A stretch of DNA of 64,000 nt from an uncultured Candidatus Saccharibacteria bacterium (GTDB lineage: Bacteria > Patescibacteriota > Minisyncoccia > Phycocordibacterales > UBA1006), in contig CAZUGR010000001.1 in NCBI GenBank assembly GCA_964620145.1, forward strand, positions 73 to 64,072, read 5' to 3'. The notes under the pieces are model-generated. The model was given only the letters and a program-made list of their open reading frames with translations. It was not told the origin of the DNA and ran no database searches. Made by a program: the position numbers and the translations under genes. The stretch's first letter is position 1, and each line of letters begins with the position of its first letter. This document shows, one piece after another, positions 2,062 through 63,972 of the stretch.

Positions 2062-2078
2062 AGTTATCCACAGTTTTG
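2062..2078 (+). promoter_or_regulatory. Perfect DnaA box TTATCCACA (2064-2072) inside the extended word AGTTATCCACAGTTTTG
   Basis: Exact consensus 9-mer. The same extended word recurs at 40154 and 63918. Confidence 0.6.
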
Positions 2079-2091
2079 TTCTCTGTACTAC

Positions 2092-2120
2092 TTGCATAGT
2101 GCGGAGAATTTTTTTATAAT
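2092..2120 (+). promoter_or_regulatory. Sigma70-type promoter TTGCAT-17-TATAAT
   Basis: TTGCAT at 2092-2097, 17-nt spacer, TATAAT at 2115-2120, about 280 nt upstream of the CYTH gene ATG. Confidence 0.55.
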
Positions 2121-2402
2121 GATAGGGAAGGTTTGAAATTGGAATATAACTTTATCACAGGTTGTGATTTTATATATCATATTCCTCCTCAATCGTTCTT
2201 TAAAATGTTCTTTATAAATTTGTTCTCAACAAAATTTTTATATGATATGTTAAACATATCAACTCCTCACAACTTAATATCTGTTCTGTATCATAATTAT
2301 ATACAGAACTCACAATATACAGTGTCCTCATCTTTTACAAGATTGGGCACTTTTTTATTGGTTTTATTTTTAAATAAATATTTTAATGATATAATAATCA
2401 CT

Positions 2403-4085: not shown

Positions 4086-6551
4086 TTATTCTACATTTTC
4101 CATCTCTCCTAAATTTTTCCCTTTTTTAACCGATACAGTAATAGGAATATCAATATTTTTAACTGTAGAACTATCAATCATTGATTCATAGTTTATAATT
4201 ACAGATTCCATTGAGTTTTTTAAAACTTGTATAAATTCATCAACCTTTTTCTCGGAAACCTCGTAAACAATTTCATCATGAATTTGTAAAATTGGAAAAA
4301 TATCTTGATTCCAACCTTTTTCTTGTAAAATACGATCAATATCAACCATTGCAAGCTTGATAATATCTGCTGCGGTTCCTTGAATAGGAGCATTAGTAGC
4401 AGTTCGTTCCGCTAACGCAATCATGAAAGGTAATTTTGACCGAAACATTGGAAAATTTCTAATTCTTCCAAAAATTGTTTTTGTTTGTAGAGTTTCTTTT
4501 GCTATTTTCTTGATATGATCAAGATATTCTCGAATACTTGGAAATTCTTCAAAATATGCTTGATAGAATTGCTCTGCTTCTGCACGAGTTCCTCCCAAGT
4601 TTTTTTGTAATGAACTAATTCCCATTCCATAAATAATTCCAAAATTAATTACTTTTGCATCACGTCGCTGGTTTCCACTAACTTCATTTTCTGGAACATT
4701 GAAAACTCGAGATGCAACCGTTGTGTGAATATCTTTATTGTTTTTAAAAACATCATACAGAATTGGGTCACCTGATAACATTGCCAATACTCTCAATTCA
4801 ATTTGTGAATAATCAGCAGAAACTAGAACATATTCATCTGCTGCAACGAAAGAATTTCTAATTACTCTCCCTAATTCACTTCGAACAGGAATATTTTGTA
4901 AATTAGGATTCTGAGAAGAAAATCTTCCTGTAGTTGTTCCATGTTGTAAAAATTGAGCATGGAGACGATTCTGATCATCAACAAGTGTTGGTAATATATC
5001 AATATATGTAGAAAGTAGCTTCTGTAATTCTCGATGATCAATAATTTTTTGTACCACATCATGCTCAGAAACAAGATCGTCGAGTATTTCTGCTTTGGTA
5101 GAATATGATCCAGTTTTATTTTTCTTGCCTTTTGGTTTTAAACCAATTTCTTCAAAGAGAAATTCTGAAAGTTGTTTTGGAGAATTAAGATTAAATTCCT
5201 TTTTTGCATATTTAAAAATTTCTATTGATAAATCTTTTAGTTTTTGGTGATATTTTTTTGATAATTCTTGTAGAAAATTATTATCAAGCATAACTCCTCG
5301 TTCAGTCATTTTTTGAACAATACCAATAAGTGGTAATTCAATTTTCTCAAAAACTTGGATGAGATTTTCTTTTTTTAATTTATCAATAATTACAGCGTGC
5401 GCTTGCTCTATTGTATCTGTCTCTGTTTCTTGCATAATTTCCGACGGAGATGGATGAGTCATATCAGAATTTAAAACCCATAAACCAACTGATGCTTCAT
5501 AAGTTATTTTCCAGTTATTAGATTCTCCTTGTGATATTTTATTTGCGTGTATATCAGAAGTTTCTGATATTTCTGTAGAAATATTTTTTTTGTCTTGTTT
5601 TTTTTGAGAACTATCTCCAAATAAATTTTCAAATTTTCCAACAAGTGACCGAAATTCATATTCCCTTAACAATCGAATCATTTTTTCTTTATCATATTGT
5701 TTTGAAAATTCTTGATCAGGTAATAAAAATTCAATAGGTGCATCTCTTCGAATAGTTGCTAGTATTTTTGAAAATTGAGCAGAGTCTTCATTTTGTAATA
5801 ATAATTCTATAGTTCTTTTCTTGATTCCTAGTTTAATAAGATTTTCTTGATCTTGATGAAGTTTTGTATATATATCTTCAATAGTACCAATTTTTGTAAT
5901 TAATTCTGTAGCTGTTTTTTCACCAATACCTGATACTCCAATAATATTATCTGAAGGATCGCCTCGTAAACCTTTGAAATCAGGAATAAGTTCTGGACCA
6001 AAAGAAAAACGATTATATACATCTTGTTCTTTATAAACCATTGTTTCATGAATTCCTTTTTTCATTGTGTATACAGAAACACGATCTGTAGTTACGAGTT
6101 GTAACGTATCCATATCACCAGAAACAATAACTATATTTATATGATCAAATTGTGCGAGAATTTGCTCTGTAATTGTACCTAACATATCATCAGCCTCGAA
6201 TCCTGCTTCTTGGTACATTGGAATTCCAAGTGTATAAAAAATATTTCTTGATTCTTCTATTTGAGCCTTTAATGAATCATCGGTTGATTTTCTACCTTTT
6301 TTATAACCATCATAACTTTCATGACGAAATGTTGGTTCAGGTAAGTCATAACAAGCGATAACATAATCAGGTTTTAAATCGCTTAACATTTTTAAAAACA
6401 TATTCAATAATCCATATAATGCTCCTGTAGGAACTCCTAATGAAGATTGAAAATCAGGAACTGCATGGAAAGCTCTGTGGATAATAGCGTGCGTATCTAG
6501 TAAAACTAAAGTTTTTTGTGTTTTTTCTTTTTGTGAGGATTTTTGTTTCAT
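4086..6551 (-). CDS. polA: DNA polymerase I
   Basis: 821 aa. N-terminal 5'-3' exonuclease domain. Polymerase motif A LVSADYSQIELRVLA, motif B RRDAKVINFGIIYG, motif C LQIHDEIVYE. Confidence 0.95.
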   Translation of the reverse strand: MKQKSSQKEKTQKTLVLLDTHAIIHRAFHAVPDFQSSLGVPTGALYGLLNMFLKMLSDLKPDYVIACYDLPEPTFRHESYDGYKKGRKSTDDSLKAQIEESRNIFYTLGIPMYQEAGFEADDMLGTITEQILAQFDHINIVIVSGDMDTLQLVTTDRVSVYTMKKGIHETMVYKEQDVYNRFSFGPELIPDFKGLRGDPSDNIIGVSGIGEKTATELITKIGTIEDIYTKLHQDQENLIKLGIKKRTIELLLQNEDSAQFSKILATIRRDAPIEFLLPDQEFSKQYDKEKMIRLLREYEFRSLVGKFENLFGDSSQKKQDKKNISTEISETSDIHANKISQGESNNWKITYEASVGLWVLNSDMTHPSPSEIMQETETDTIEQAHAVIIDKLKKENLIQVFEKIELPLIGIVQKMTERGVMLDNNFLQELSKKYHQKLKDLSIEIFKYAKKEFNLNSPKQLSEFLFEEIGLKPKGKKNKTGSYSTKAEILDDLVSEHDVVQKIIDHRELQKLLSTYIDILPTLVDDQNRLHAQFLQHGTTTGRFSSQNPNLQNIPVRSELGRVIRNSFVAADEYVLVSADYSQIELRVLAMLSGDPILYDVFKNNKDIHTTVASRVFNVPENEVSGNQRRDAKVINFGIIYGMGISSLQKNLGGTRAEAEQFYQAYFEEFPSIREYLDHIKKIAKETLQTKTIFGRIRNFPMFRSKLPFMIALAERTATNAPIQGTAADIIKLAMVDIDRILQEKGWNQDIFPILQIHDEIVYEVSEKKVDEFIQVLKNSMESVIINYESMIDSSTVKNIDIPITVSVKKGKNLGEMENVE

Positions 6552-15079: not shown

Positions 15080-15316
15080 AGAAGTTGTTTTTTAAATTTA
15101 TAAATTAATACATTATTATAATTATTATACCTGTGGATTCTGTGGATTTCTTTTTAGGTATTATTTTAAATATATTTTTTCTAAAAAAGATATGGGGAAA
15201 AGGAAGAGTTTTAAAGAGAATAACTTTTTGTAAAAGTTAAGAAAAAAGTTATAAACAAATTATTCAGATTAATTATACAGAGTTCTTGAGAAGTTATTCA
15301 CAAGATTATCTACAGA
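15080..15316. other. Putative oriC segment (dnaA-dnaN intergenic): AT-rich unwinding-type tract plus DnaA-box variants
   Basis: TGTGGATTC (15133-15141), TGTGGATTT (15141-15149), TTATTCACA (15294-15302), TTATCTACA (15306-15314). Very AT-rich run at 15085-15130. Confidence 0.5.
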
Positions 15317-16672
15317 TTAAGTTTGGAGCATAGCACGAATCTGTTCAACATCATGAACAAGTGAAGGATTTTCTTCGAGTTCTTTGGTAATTTTTTCATA
15401 TGAATGCATTACTGTAGTATGATCTCGCCCACCAAGTTTTTTTCCAATATGAGGAAATGAAATAGTGTAATCTTCTCGCAGGATATACATGGCAACTTGT
15501 CGTGCTTCAACAATCTCTTTTCGTCTATTTTTATCATACATAAGCTTTTCTTCGATATTATAGAAATGTGCTATCACTTTAACAATTTCTTCTAAGGAAA
15601 TATTTTTCTTTGGTTTTATATTGTCTTTTATCATTAATTTAATCTCTTGAAGATTAAGTTCTCGTTTCCTGAGTTCCATTTGCATTATTAATGTATTAAT
15701 AATTCCTTCAAGTTCTCGAACATTTCCTTCAACATGACTTGCAATGTAATCAAGTGATTCATCAGAAAGGTTGAAATTATGATATTCAAGTTTTGATCGA
15801 AGGATAGCAATACGAGATTCATATCCAGGACGAGCAACATCAATGATCATTCCAGCAGAAAACCTTGATTTTAAACGCTCTTCAAGACCTATAATGTAAT
15901 TTGGATGTTTGTCTGATGAAAAAATTAATTGTCGATTCCGATCATGTAATATATTGAATAAATGAAATAATTCTTCTTGAATACTTTCTTTTCCAGTGTT
16001 AAAGAATTGAATATCATCCATAATAAGTACATCACAATTACGATATTTTTCTTTAAATTGATTAATATGCTTATTTTGTAATGCTGAAACATAATCCATA
16101 AGGAATTTTTCAGAAGTTACATAATAAATATTTAAACCAGGATTTTTTTCAAATAACGCATTCCCAGTTGCTTGAATAAGGTGAGTTTTTCCAATACCTG
16201 TTGATCCATAAATAAATAATGGATTGAATGAACCAGGGTTTTTTATAACTGCTTGAGAGGCAGAATAAGCAACTTCATTAAAGGGTCCAATAATAAGGTT
16301 ATCAAAGGTATATTTTGGATTTAAGTTATTTTTCTTTGGAATCATGTGATCCAAAGGAAGTTCAGAAATAATTGGTTTTTCTTGGAGGGGTTCTGATTTT
16401 GGAGGAATTACTTGTTTTATTGGCTTTTTTGCAGTAATAAACTCTATAGAACGAATATCATCCCAATGATTACGAATAGTTTTGAGAACTTCACGGCTAA
16501 ATTTACTTGTAAGCCACTCTTTAATGAAATCATTCGGTACACCAACAAAAAACACACCATCTTCTTCTTTGATTGCGTAGGTATTCTTGAACCATGTCGT
16601 AAAGTTAGCTTTTGAAACAGAGATTTCTATTTCTGCAAGTACAGTATCCCAGAGATTGTGTATATCACGCAT
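15317..16672 (-). CDS. dnaA: Chromosomal replication initiator DnaA
   Basis: 451 aa. Walker A GSTGIGKTH, box VII, and the C-terminal DNA-binding signature SFPHIGKKLGGRDHTTVMHSYEKI. Confidence 0.95.
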   Translation of the reverse strand: MRDIHNLWDTVLAEIEISVSKANFTTWFKNTYAIKEEDGVFFVGVPNDFIKEWLTSKFSREVLKTIRNHWDDIRSIEFITAKKPIKQVIPPKSEPLQEKPIISELPLDHMIPKKNNLNPKYTFDNLIIGPFNEVAYSASQAVIKNPGSFNPLFIYGSTGIGKTHLIQATGNALFEKNPGLNIYYVTSEKFLMDYVSALQNKHINQFKEKYRNCDVLIMDDIQFFNTGKESIQEELFHLFNILHDRNRQLIFSSDKHPNYIIGLEERLKSRFSAGMIIDVARPGYESRIAILRSKLEYHNFNLSDESLDYIASHVEGNVRELEGIINTLIMQMELRKRELNLQEIKLMIKDNIKPKKNISLEEIVKVIAHFYNIEEKLMYDKNRRKEIVEARQVAMYILREDYTISFPHIGKKLGGRDHTTVMHSYEKITKELEENPSLVHDVEQIRAMLQT

Positions 16673-16762: not shown

Positions 16763-16791
16763 TGTGGATAACCTGTTGAAAAAGTGGATAA
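16763..16791. promoter_or_regulatory. Two DnaA boxes in the dnaA-rpmH intergenic region
   Basis: TGTGGATAA (16763-16771, perfect reverse-strand box) and AGTGGATAA (16783-16791, one mismatch). Confidence 0.6.
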
Positions 16792-16833
16792 CTATTAAAG
16801 ACAGATAGAATATCAGTTTTTAGATTAAAGGTA

Positions 16834-16861
16834 TTGCATAATCCTTGATTATGTGTATAAT
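16834..16861 (+). promoter_or_regulatory. rpmH promoter TTGCAT-16-TATAAT
   Basis: TTGCAT at 16834-16839, TATAAT at 16856-16861. The ATG at 16872 is only 10 nt beyond the -10 element, implying a near-leaderless mRNA. Confidence 0.5.
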
Positions 16862-21464: not shown

Positions 21465-22499
21465 TTACTGTGGTCCTTGAAAAAAGAGTGTTGTTGATTT
21501 TTCTGCTGTTTGTAGAAAAGTTCTTGGATTCTCTAAATTTACAGAAAAAGTTACCTGACCAGATTTGTTCGGGTTTCGAACAATGAGTTCTTGTTTTGGA
21601 GAATCAGGGTCGAGATAGAGTGTTTCATTGTTCATTTTCCAAGTAAAATCAAGATCGTTCAGTCTTGCAAGTGAAAAGAAAAACGGTTCAGCGATAATCG
21701 TAACATCTCCTTGTCCAATACGAAGTCCTTCATTAATGGAAATAGGTTGTCTATAATTATAACTATCTCGATAATACCAATTAATTTCTGGGTTAGTAAT
21801 TGGGATGGTGATGGTTTGTTGTCCAGTATTATTATTTGCAACATCTGATATATTTGCAGTAATTTTTTCTGAACTTCTTAATTTATTATGTTGAATAGTG
21901 AGTGTGTTTTTTCCATATCCTCCTGCGTTGAGAACTGTATTATCGTTACGAGTCCAAACATAAACCGCATCGGCTAATTGATTTGAATTATTTAATTTAA
22001 AATTAGGAATTCCTGTAATTTTAATGATTGATTCTTGGCTTGCAAACTTTTTACCATAATAAAAAGGTGGAACATACGAATCGACTGCTTCCCAGAGAAG
22101 TGCTGTATCCTGAGGTGTAATGGTGATATTTTTAACAATACGAGCACCAGAACCGGAAATAATAACAGTAATACGTTTCCGAGTCCCGTTATTACCTGCT
22201 TGGATTGTAATATCTCGCATACCAATACCTGATTTTTGTTCAAAAGTATCCGTCGTCCATTGAATCATGTATCGATTCAAGTCAATACTATTACTATCAA
22301 GTCTAATATAAACATCTTGGAATGCGCGAGGATATTCTGGATTGATAATAACATCAATATCAGACTCGTTCACTGATGCGTTATATGACAATGCTGATAT
22401 TTGAGAAAGATCGCTTGCTGTTGGTTCTGTATTTTGAGCAAAAGATATATTTCCTAAAAAAGGTATTAAAATAAATAGTAATACAAGAGACTTGTTCAT
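21465..22499 (-). CDS. Secreted beta-rich hypothetical protein of the secretion cluster
   Basis: 344 aa. Signal peptide MNKSLVLLFILIPFLGNISFAQN. No recognisable catalytic motif. Confidence 0.5.
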   Translation of the reverse strand: MNKSLVLLFILIPFLGNISFAQNTEPTASDLSQISALSYNASVNESDIDVIINPEYPRAFQDVYIRLDSNSIDLNRYMIQWTTDTFEQKSGIGMRDITIQAGNNGTRKRITVIISGSGARIVKNITITPQDTALLWEAVDSYVPPFYYGKKFASQESIIKITGIPNFKLNNSNQLADAVYVWTRNDNTVLNAGGYGKNTLTIQHNKLRSSEKITANISDVANNNTGQQTITIPITNPEINWYYRDSYNYRQPISINEGLRIGQGDVTIIAEPFFFSLARLNDLDFTWKMNNETLYLDPDSPKQELIVRNPNKSGQVTFSVNLENPRTFLQTAEKSTTLFFQGPQ

Positions 22500-62561: not shown

Positions 62562-63806
62562 TTATTCTTGTTCTGGAGTATCTCCGGTTAATTCTGCTTC
62601 ATTCTGTACAAGGTCAGCCAATGCGATAAAATCATCTTCATCGCCTGTCGGGTCTCCGTTCTCGTCTACTTCTTCACCTTTGATGCCTTTGATATCAATT
62701 TTCCAATTGGTGAGTCGTGCAGCAAGTCGAACATTTTGCCCAGATTTTCCAATAGCCAGAGAGAGTTGATTATCAGCAACTTCAACACTTGCCATGTGCT
62801 CTGCTTCGTCAATAGTAATATTAACTACGCGAGCTGGTGCGAGTGAATTTGCGATAAATTCAGAAATAATCGGTGACCAGGGAATGATGTCGATGTTTTC
62901 CCCGTGGAGTTCGTCTTTGATTGTTTGCACACGAACACCTCGTTGTCCTACACATGCCCCAATTGGATCAACACTTTCATCGTTTGACCAAACAGCTATT
63001 TTTGATCGAGAGCCGGCTTCTCGTGATACAGATTTAATCTCAACCGTACCGCTTGCAACCTCGGGAGACTCTTGGATGAATAATTGAGTAATCATCTGTG
63101 GATGTTTTCGAGAGAGTCGCAATGTTACTCCACGTGGAGTTTCGTCAATTGCATAGAGATATGCCTTGATGCGATCACCTGGCTTCCATGTTTCTCCTGG
63201 GATTTGTTCTGTTGTATGGAGAATTCCTGTTGCTCGATAGAATTCAATAAAGATATTTCCTCGTTCGATAGTTTGGATAATACCACTCATTAGTGTTCCT
63301 TGCTTGTCAGTATATTCTCGTGCGATGGTTCCTTTTTCTGCTTCACGGAGTCGTTGCATGATAACTTGTTTTGCGGTTTGTGCTGCAATTCTTCCGAATT
63401 CTGCGTCAGGTGGATCGAGAGGGAAAATCATTTCTTGGCCAACTTCTGCATCACTTTTCATGATTTTTGCATTCTGGATGTACATGTGTTTTTCCTCGTC
63501 GAATCGTGGAATGACTTCTTCGCCTTCTGCTGGTTCTGGGTCTTGGAATCCTTCGGCGATTTGTTCTTCGGTGAGTGCAGGTCGTACAGTATTTTCATCA
63601 ACGATGAGTTTTACTTGAGAAAAATCAACATCACCTGTTTCAAGGTTGAATACAGAACGGATTACTTGTCCTCGTTTTCCATGATCTCTCTTATATGCTG
63701 CGGCGAGAGCTTGTTCAATAGCATCAATAATAGCTGCTTGGGGGATTTTTTTCTCTTGTTCGATTTGTTCAAGAGTGGATTTTAAAATTTTTAGATCGAA
63801 TAACAT
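62562..63806 (-). CDS. nusA: Transcription termination/antitermination factor NusA
   Basis: 414 aa. N-terminal domain, S1 domain, two KH domains (GACVGQRGVRVQ; AIGKSGQNVRLAARL), and an acidic tail. Confidence 0.9.
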   Translation of the reverse strand: MLFDLKILKSTLEQIEQEKKIPQAAIIDAIEQALAAAYKRDHGKRGQVIRSVFNLETGDVDFSQVKLIVDENTVRPALTEEQIAEGFQDPEPAEGEEVIPRFDEEKHMYIQNAKIMKSDAEVGQEMIFPLDPPDAEFGRIAAQTAKQVIMQRLREAEKGTIAREYTDKQGTLMSGIIQTIERGNIFIEFYRATGILHTTEQIPGETWKPGDRIKAYLYAIDETPRGVTLRLSRKHPQMITQLFIQESPEVASGTVEIKSVSREAGSRSKIAVWSNDESVDPIGACVGQRGVRVQTIKDELHGENIDIIPWSPIISEFIANSLAPARVVNITIDEAEHMASVEVADNQLSLAIGKSGQNVRLAARLTNWKIDIKGIKGEEVDENGDPTGDEDDFIALADLVQNEAELTGDTPEQE

Positions 63807-63917
63807 ATATTTATTTTTTAGATTATTTATTTGTTTATAATAAAAGCTCCTTGGTGGGAACTTGTTAGTATCTTATCACAGGACAGACTTTTTTCCAATC
63901 ATACAACACATATACAA

Positions 63918-63933
63918 AGTTATCCACAGTTTG
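63918..63933 (+). promoter_or_regulatory. Perfect DnaA box TTATCCACA (63920-63928) in the word AGTTATCCACAGTTTG
   Basis: Third copy of the extended word. Lies 17 nt upstream of a -35 element. Confidence 0.55.
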
Positions 63934-63944
63934 CTCGATAACCC

Positions 63945-63972
63945 TTGCTTTTTTTGAAATATTAAGTATAAT
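63945..63972 (+). promoter_or_regulatory. Rightward promoter TTGCTT-16-TATAAT reading out of the window
   Basis: TTGCTT at 63945-63950, TATAAT at 63967-63972. Confidence 0.45.

Follow-up and report, generated by a model that had tools for sequence, protein, structure and literature searches.

A conserved extended DnaA-box word upstream of promoters in an uncultured Patescibacteria lineage

The word GTTATCCACAG(TTT) is probably the high-affinity DnaA box of the lineage studied here, and outside the origin it would serve as a control element upstream of promoters. It is the scale and the regularity that set this case apart: few intergenic words are as common as the perfect box in this minimal genome, the box appears to be set on one helical face upstream of many promoters, and individual promoters have retained it without change as the DNA around it diverged. 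In model bacteria, a handful of promoters are known to be regulated by DnaA in addition to its role in replication, and Patescibacteria possess very few transcription factors. To our knowledge, the genus has no cultured representative. Full-text literature searches returned no paper linking DnaA boxes to promoters of Patescibacteria, CPR or Saccharibacteria (TM7x). New here are the genus-wide orthology of three sites, the one-turn indels between box and promoter, the predicted small RNA downstream of site 1 and the array of three boxes close to parS.

The analysed stretch of DNA (64 kb, called the window throughout) is contig C1 of G000, a draft MAG of the Paceibacteria type (Patescibacteria) with 0.92 Mb in 130 contigs. 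The bin is mixed and includes foreign contigs, which are counted in the genome-wide totals; contig C58, for example, carries a second nusA with 82% identity to the copy in the window.

Results

Perfect boxes in the window

Five perfect TTATCCACA boxes are present in the window, where 0.84 would be expected, and none of 100 shuffled sequences reached this number. Three of them lie on the plus strand at 2064-2072, 40156-40164 and 63920-63928 (sites 1, 2 and 3), exactly where the preliminary description had placed them, and the promoters assigned to them were likewise found at their positions (Table 1). All three match the DnaA-box consensus TTWTNCACA with the perfect 9-mer, and the gaps between the end of the box and the -35 hexamer are 19, 82 and 16 nt, respectively. 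That inventory had overlooked two further perfect boxes on the minus strand (6476-6484 and 16763-16771). The longer context said to be shared by the three sites also had to be trimmed: they have the identical 14-mer GTTATCCACAGTTT in common, beginning at 2063, 40155 and 63919, but the base preceding the word at 40155 is an A and not a G (taGGTTATCC). The 14-mer is nevertheless beyond chance, as had been claimed, since about 0.001 exact copies are expected in the window from base composition and three are observed.

That the pattern arose by chance, or that the word is a fragment of a repeated or mobile sequence, is thus exceedingly improbable. Nothing but the AT-rich background speaks for it, and against it stand the shuffled sequences, the same letters reversed, which are absent from all 41 genomes searched, and the orthology of the sites across the genus. 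An origin of the word from a mobile repeat was rejected because sequence identity between the sites ends about 15 nt out and the flanks beyond are unrelated.

Table 1. Boxes, promoters and neighbouring features in the window
Feature	Position	Strand	Remarks
Site 1, extended DnaA box GTTATCCACAGTTTT	2063..2077	plus	26 nt past SpoU methylase stop, 19 nt upstream of -35
Site 1 promoter TTGCAT-17-TATAAT	2092..2120	plus	CTTGC-N-TATA(A/C)T conserved in 7 genomes
Predicted structured sRNA gene, ~230 nt	2126..2356	plus	5' domain, invariant AACUCCUCACAA, terminator GUGUCC..GGGCAC and U-run
Perfect box TTATCCACA	6476-6484	minus	within ORF
Two abutting partial boxes AAATCCACA, GAATCCACA	15132..15149	minus	2 nt upstream of dnaN -10 (TATAAT, 15124-15129)
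TTATTCACA in dnaA-dnaN spacer	15294..15302	plus	from window letters
dnaA promoter-region boxes TTATCCACA (16763-16771) and GTTATCCACT (16783)	16763..16792	minus	both point at dnaA
Third dnaA-region box TTATACACA	16852-16860		upstream of dnaA
Perfect parS palindrome TGTTTCACGTGAAACA	39979..39994		overlaps yraN (UPF0102) start codon; 160 nt left of site 2
yraN promoter TTGTGT-17-TATAAT	40072..40100	minus	-35 begins 55 nt from site 2 box
Site 2, three-box direct array TTATAAACA + TATACCACT + 3 bp + TTATCCACA, then GTTT	40135..40168	plus	core conserved beyond genus
tRNA-Gly(GCC) promoter TTGCCA-17-TATGAT	40247..40275	plus	82 nt from site 2 box
tRNA-Gly(GCC)	40299-40370	plus	always close to site 2 array in relatives
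Leftward nusA promoter TTGGAA-17-TAAGAT with TGn	63870..63898	minus	-35 lies 21 nt from site 3 box
Site 3, GTTATCCACAGTTT between divergent promoters	63919..63932	plus	from window letters and relatives' nusA upstream regions
Rightward promoter TTGCTT-16-TATAAT	63945..63972	plus	precedes peptidase gene starting just past window end

Boxes and promoters in the draft genome

The genome-wide count and map relative to promoters, which had been proposed as a check, agree with the picture in the window. The draft contains 24 perfect boxes, and 17 of these are intergenic, with 13.5% of the DNA being intergenic and 86% coding on the crude ORF map used for this split. The 14-mer GTTATCCACAGTTT occurs in seven copies (six unique) and the same letters reversed in none. 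TTATCCACA ranks among the top non-trivial intergenic 9-mers of the genome, beside the words of the -10 and -35 hexamers. The classical DnaA-box variants TTTTCCACA and TTATACACA are likewise enriched between genes, whereas most other single-mismatch variants are found mainly in coding DNA.

By eye, a sigma70-type promoter was recognized within about 30 nt of nearly every intergenic perfect box, and in 13-14 of the 16 unique intergenic perfect boxes the box reads towards a downstream promoter of the same orientation. Two of the boxes have a promoter on the reverse side only, and some are located between divergent promoters. These placement figures rest on site-by-site inspection, because automatic promoter rules proved either too strict or too loose; under the stricter automatic rule 8 of the 17 intergenic boxes were positive, compared to a background of 6.8%.

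The genes behind the box promoters are diverse. Pfam assigned mraZ, ruvB, dut, an ABC-transporter ATPase (which we take to be FtsE-like), a PilM/FtsA-like protein, an ECF sigma factor, an M43 peptidase with a T9SS tail, an integrase, an ArdC fragment and a D5-type primase-helicase; hisS, an M23 peptidase and secA were named from reading of the sequence alone. Among the mobile-element genes, the D5-type primase-helicase, the ArdC-N fragment and the tyrosine integrase are found at C64:1-2491, C7:1-60, C7:5169 and C2:44518 of the draft, and C64 and the end of C7 carry one common box-promoter sequence.

Several of these loci show further peculiarities. At the mraZ promoter (C4, about 21480-21530), the words GTGAAAC and GTGTTTCA, which resemble parS half-sites, are located between the DnaA box and three GTGGGA repeats, and GTGTTTCA overlaps the -35 hexamer; the repeats downstream of the box are presumably MraZ boxes. 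The promoter on C26 (104-330, locus L068; near-copy on the minus strand at C19:122) is followed by a conserved leader of stem-like appearance, ATAGATGATT..GATCGAGACCTCG..GGTCGAATCATCG, then by a small lysine-rich ORF with KKVAKKA repeats and by secA. This leader is kept in the genus and in G010. On C19 (560-820, locus L067), the box at position 649 lies between divergent promoters, and a short non-coding stretch rich in hairpins is found behind each of them; the rightward stretch comprises about 100 nt with a terminator at its end. No Rfam family matched the transcripts behind the boxes, including the sRNA of site 1, the leader of the secA region and the stretches on C19. The only Rfam match near any box is the RNase P RNA at C19:1666-2010 on the minus strand, which is unrelated to the box. 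Finally, the short contig C69 (1675-1810) carries iteron-like GTACAGTTT(T/G/A) repeats on both strands that partly resemble the right half of the extended box (CACAGTTT). This run may be a plasmid or phage origin.

Conservation at orthologous promoters

The preliminary description had named missing conservation of the word in relatives as an observation that would speak against it. Instead, relatives carry the word at orthologous loci. Each of the nine other genomes of the genus that were searched contains one to seven copies of the 14-mer, and these copies fall into orthologous classes: the mraZ promoter, site 1 of the window, the promoter of the structured leader before the lysine-rich ORF and secA, site 2 of the window, and others. 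Within the family and the order, the 14-mer occurs sporadically. The core word reaches further, as GTTATCCACAG was detected in 126 of 201 sampled genomes of Patescibacteria, where about 290 copies were counted; the reversed control yielded a few dozen.

At the orthologous mraZ, sRNA and leader promoters, the numbers of invariant positions within the 14-mer are 14/14, 14/14 and 13/14, respectively, whereas only 19-35% of the remaining alignment columns are invariant, and most of these belong to the -35 hexamer, the -10 hexamer or the transcript. For site 1, this means an unchanged 14-mer in seven genomes of the genus against 19% invariant columns elsewhere in the alignment.

Spacing between box and promoter

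When the 14-mer copies of the genus and the boxes of the draft genome are pooled, the gaps between the end of the box and the -35 hexamer cluster at 7-10, 16-20 and 26-30 nt, which puts the centre of the box near -48, -58 or -68. Orthologous promoters switch from one cluster to another by indels of 9-11 bp, that is by one helical turn: the gap at the sRNA promoter is 18-19 nt in four genomes and 28-30 nt in three, that at the mraZ promoter is 19-20 or 30 nt among the orthologues, and that at site 3 is 16 or 26 nt. A Rayleigh test with all 43 values gave R = 0.65 for periods of 10-10.5 bp. When each class and cluster contributed a single value (15 in total), R fell to 0.49 with p ~0.06. Since the relatives are not independent of each other, helical phasing of the boxes is well suggested, short of being proven.

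This arrangement bears on the idea that the boxes are dispersed titration or reservoir sites, which buffer free DnaA and do not act on transcription directly. The number of high-affinity boxes, a few dozen in about 0.8 Mb of genome, and the location of three perfect ones within about 50 kb of dnaA would suit such a role. However, titration needs neither a fixed helical face relative to the -35 hexamer nor a preferred orientation, nor the retention of a box at the same promoter across one-turn indels, and boxes in coding DNA, which is avoided, would titrate equally well. Phasing, orientation and avoidance of coding DNA therefore make pure titration an insufficient explanation, and we regard it as quite unlikely.

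A predicted small RNA behind site 1

The transcript behind the site 1 promoter is predicted to be a new structured sRNA, which is conserved in seven genomes of the genus. RNAalifold proposes 22 base pairs for its 5' domain, and 17 of these keep pairing through changes on both sides. The invariant motif CTCCTCACAA and the stretch AACUCCUCACAA occur just once in the draft genome, so that no paralogues of the sRNA were found there. Its CUCCUC stretch could pair with Shine-Dalgarno sequences. Site 1 had initially been interpreted as part of a leader of the CYTH gene (2403-2882). This was abandoned, since the sRNA is self-contained and ends at about 2356 with its own terminator, a hairpin followed by a U-run, upstream of the CYTH start at 2403, and since CYTH is not the neighbour in several relatives.

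Site 3 between nusA and a peptidase gene

Site 3 is located between two divergent promoters. The rightward gene encodes a secreted M43-type peptidase of 967 aa with InlB-type repeats and a T9SS sorting tail (Pfam); the ORF to the left (62562-63806) is, in our reading of its sequence, presumably nusA. The exact arrangement recurs only in G002, where the gap to the rightward -35 hexamer belongs to the longer cluster given above, so that orthologues of site 3 are known from two genomes, compared to seven for site 1. The region upstream of nusA keeps a box in seven of eight genomes. In five other genomes, this box (TTATCCACA or TTTTCCACA) is flipped and abuts the extended -10 element of the nusA promoter. 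Therefore, the association of the box with the region is conserved, but its geometry is not.

Boxes at dnaA and dnaN

The dnaA and dnaN genes have boxes of their own (Table 1). Many relatives likewise have a box at a distance of 80-100 nt upstream of dnaA, and the dnaN promoter of G004, another species of the genus, has TTATCCACAGTATCCACA at the place equivalent to the two abutting partial boxes of the window. The DnaA protein itself (15317-16672, minus strand) matches the B. subtilis DnaA structure 8btg with E = 4e-100 and the domain IV structure 1j1v with 3e-12, and the conserved GGRDHTTV in its domain IV marks a canonical DNA-binding domain. It is the only gene of the lineage in the bin that encodes a domain IV. 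A second match to domain IV on contig C36 was rejected as another DnaA-like reader, because this contig is of high GC content and represents a contaminant of the bin rather than the source of a paralogue; the contig also carries what we take to be a DNA methyltransferase-like and a DnaN-like ORF.

Site 2, parS and the origin

The preliminary description had regarded site 2 as an element of the tRNA-Gly promoter. This link is weak: the promoter is 82 nt away in the window and about 180 nt away in relatives, which makes a direct promoter role doubtful, and the site is an array of three boxes next to parS. Site 2 most likely represents a different use of the word, namely a DnaA assembly site in the neighbourhood of the origin and the centromere. 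Relatives of the genus have a version of the array consisting of TTATGAACA, GTACCCACC, 3 bp and TTATCCACA, and conservation of the array extends beyond the genus to three others (represented by G010, G029 and G036), two of which belong to other families of the order.

It had also been stated that all three boxes are far from oriC. This is not established, as site 2 lies at the GC-skew minimum in G029 and at a secondary minimum in G004. One could go further and assume that the array is part of the chromosomal origin, so that oriC would not lie beside dnaA in this lineage. We see this as possible, with the greater weight on the other side. Three direct boxes with gaps of 0 and 3 bp, AT-rich flanks and a perfect parS 160 nt away would fit an origin, and G004 has a second perfect box pointing towards the array from the other side of an AT-rich stretch of about 110 nt. 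The word in G029 (106 kb) coincides with both the minimum of the cumulative GC skew and the switch in gene orientation; dnaA of this genome is found at 69-70 kb. For G004, a steady positive skew and genes on the plus strand set in from the array (56 kb) onwards, and the secondary skew minimum is located there, too. The global skew minimum of G004, at 40 kb, and its minimum of gene orientation, at 47-48 kb, lie 8-16 kb from the array, and its dnaA is at 24-25 kb. Another point in favour is an inversion between G000 and G004, which affects a block of about 8 kb with the array at one end. On the other hand, the gene-orientation minimum in these two genomes lies at the opposite end of that block, the skew minimum of G010 is at dnaA (138 kb) with the array at 93 kb, that of G000 (12-16 kb) is near dnaA and dnaN, and the dnaA-dnaN spacer has boxes and AT-rich DNA, too. 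A survey of T4SS equates the origin with dnaA (PMC12102498).

The inverted block extends over about 39.5-47.8 kb in the window and over 47.1-56.8 kb of contig C1 in G004, the genomes belonging to two species of the genus. It contains yraN, the box array, tRNA-Gly, tRNA-Arg, the CCA enzyme and four further genes, and one of the inversion breakpoints separates rpsO from yraN at a distance of about 0.6 kb to the left of the box array.

Discussion

The preliminary description had offered DnaA-controlled promoters as one interpretation of the three sites. For sites 1 and 3 this is still the best reading: the boxes are conserved near promoters, and one-turn indels keep their phase. For site 2 it is doubtful, as the connection to the tRNA-Gly promoter is weak. 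That DnaA itself would be the reader is suggested by the identity of the 11-mer GTTATCCACAG to boxes R1 and R4 of the E. coli oriC, as read from the MG1655 sequence, and the asymmetry of the site fits a domain that binds as a monomer.

The alternative that deserves the most attention is another regulator of Patescibacteria, which reads a word of 14-15 bp that merely contains the DnaA consensus. The strictly conserved flanks, a G before and GTTTT after the box, extend past the classical 9-mer and could mark another protein, since G(-1) and GTTTT(+10 to +14) vary no more than the 9-mer. Moreover, a census of the 15-mer revealed sites that are either near-exact or absent, with nine having no or one mismatch compared to none in the control. 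It also matters here that E. coli DnaA prefers double boxes in vivo and rarely occupies lone ones, only 13 of 32 perfect single boxes being bound (PMC11317965). A second box was found beside neither site 1 nor site 3; the possibility of a second, weaker box at a distance of 2-3 bp was considered at both sites and rejected, because TT(A/G)T of the flank fits but the 3' half does not. Against another regulator stand the spectrum of variants, which follows the degeneracy of the DnaA box (TTWTNCACA), the presence of the word at the dnaA and dnaN promoters, its match to R1 and R4, and the many promoter-associated boxes that lack the GTTT flank on the 3' side. A single asymmetric site would also be unusual for dimeric helix-turn-helix regulators. 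Taken together, we consider a reader other than DnaA unlikely.

If DnaA is the reader, one monomer would presumably bind the asymmetric site, which would be placed on a single face of the helix around -48, -58 or -68 from the start site and would mostly read towards the promoter. The bound DnaA might then touch RNA polymerase from upstream of the -35 hexamer and modulate sigma70-type promoters that are already good, either by activation or by repression. DnaA is known to do both in model bacteria (PMC8203912). Two observations count against such a role of DnaA: the -35 and -10 hexamers are good, so that an activator is not obviously needed, and the orientation of the boxes is not uniform. Candidate targets would be the structured sRNA (site 1), the nusA/peptidase pair (site 3), mraZ, the leader of the secA region, dnaA, dnaN, ruvB and the mobile-element genes, and their output would be coupled to the amount or the nucleotide state of DnaA.

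A much wider generalization can be formulated from the same sequence data: DnaA would be a general, helix-phased regulator in the manner of Fis or CRP, for which a lone G-TTATCCACA-GTTTT box suffices for occupancy and which directly determines the expression of RNAs, both stable and regulatory, and of genes for cell division, surface proteins and mobile elements throughout the phylum, and the origin of the order would lie beside parS and not beside dnaA. We regard this combination as rather unlikely and put it forward tentatively.

Should DnaA indeed read the word, a single protein would connect the replication state of these ultra-small, host-dependent bacteria directly with their cell division, RNA metabolism and surface proteins. 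This would supply a concrete and testable regulon in a phylum about whose gene regulation hardly anything is known. In addition, the sRNA of site 1 and the structured leader before secA are search handles for new non-coding RNAs, and the analysis raises the question where oriC is located in this lineage.

Comparison with known systems

The closest resemblance is to boxes R1 and R4 of the E. coli oriC, which have the identical 11-mer and represent asymmetric sites bound by one domain IV. Unlike these, the copies described here are mostly single, lie outside of clusters and close to promoters, and have an additional conserved TTT(T).

With regard to position, the boxes resemble the sites of class I activators, where CRP binds at -61.5 or -71.5 and Fis at -71 (site I of rrnB P1). 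The centres at about -48, -58 and -68, the period of about 10 bp and the location upstream of the -35 hexamer are alike, as a functional analogy and with no homology implied; different from the class I situation, the promoters here have good -35 hexamers.

Dispersed sites of the datA or DARS1/2 type from E. coli and the DnaA-box clusters of B. subtilis had been considered as models, too. What site 2 has in common with them is that a few boxes, all in direct order, are grouped in the neighbourhood of the origin region. The analogy was dropped for sites 1 and 3, since they are single boxes with no second box at a gap of 2-3 bp. Neither IHF or Fis sites nor a DARS-type arrangement of boxes was identified at the three sites, site 2 consisting of three boxes with no accessory site identified.

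DnaA-regulated promoters have been described for dnaA and nrdAB of E. coli, dnaA and sda of B. subtilis, and ftsZ, mipZ and gcrA of Caulobacter (PMC8203912). As in these cases, the boxes are found here near promoters of replication, repair and cell-division genes, and dnaA itself is boxed. However, there are also clear differences. E. coli prefers double boxes (PMC11317965), whereas mostly lone perfect boxes occur here. Furthermore, they appear to be helix-phased upstream of the -35 hexamer and are conserved within the genus, their 11-mer is over-represented across the phylum, and the set of targets includes an sRNA, surface proteins and mobile-element genes.
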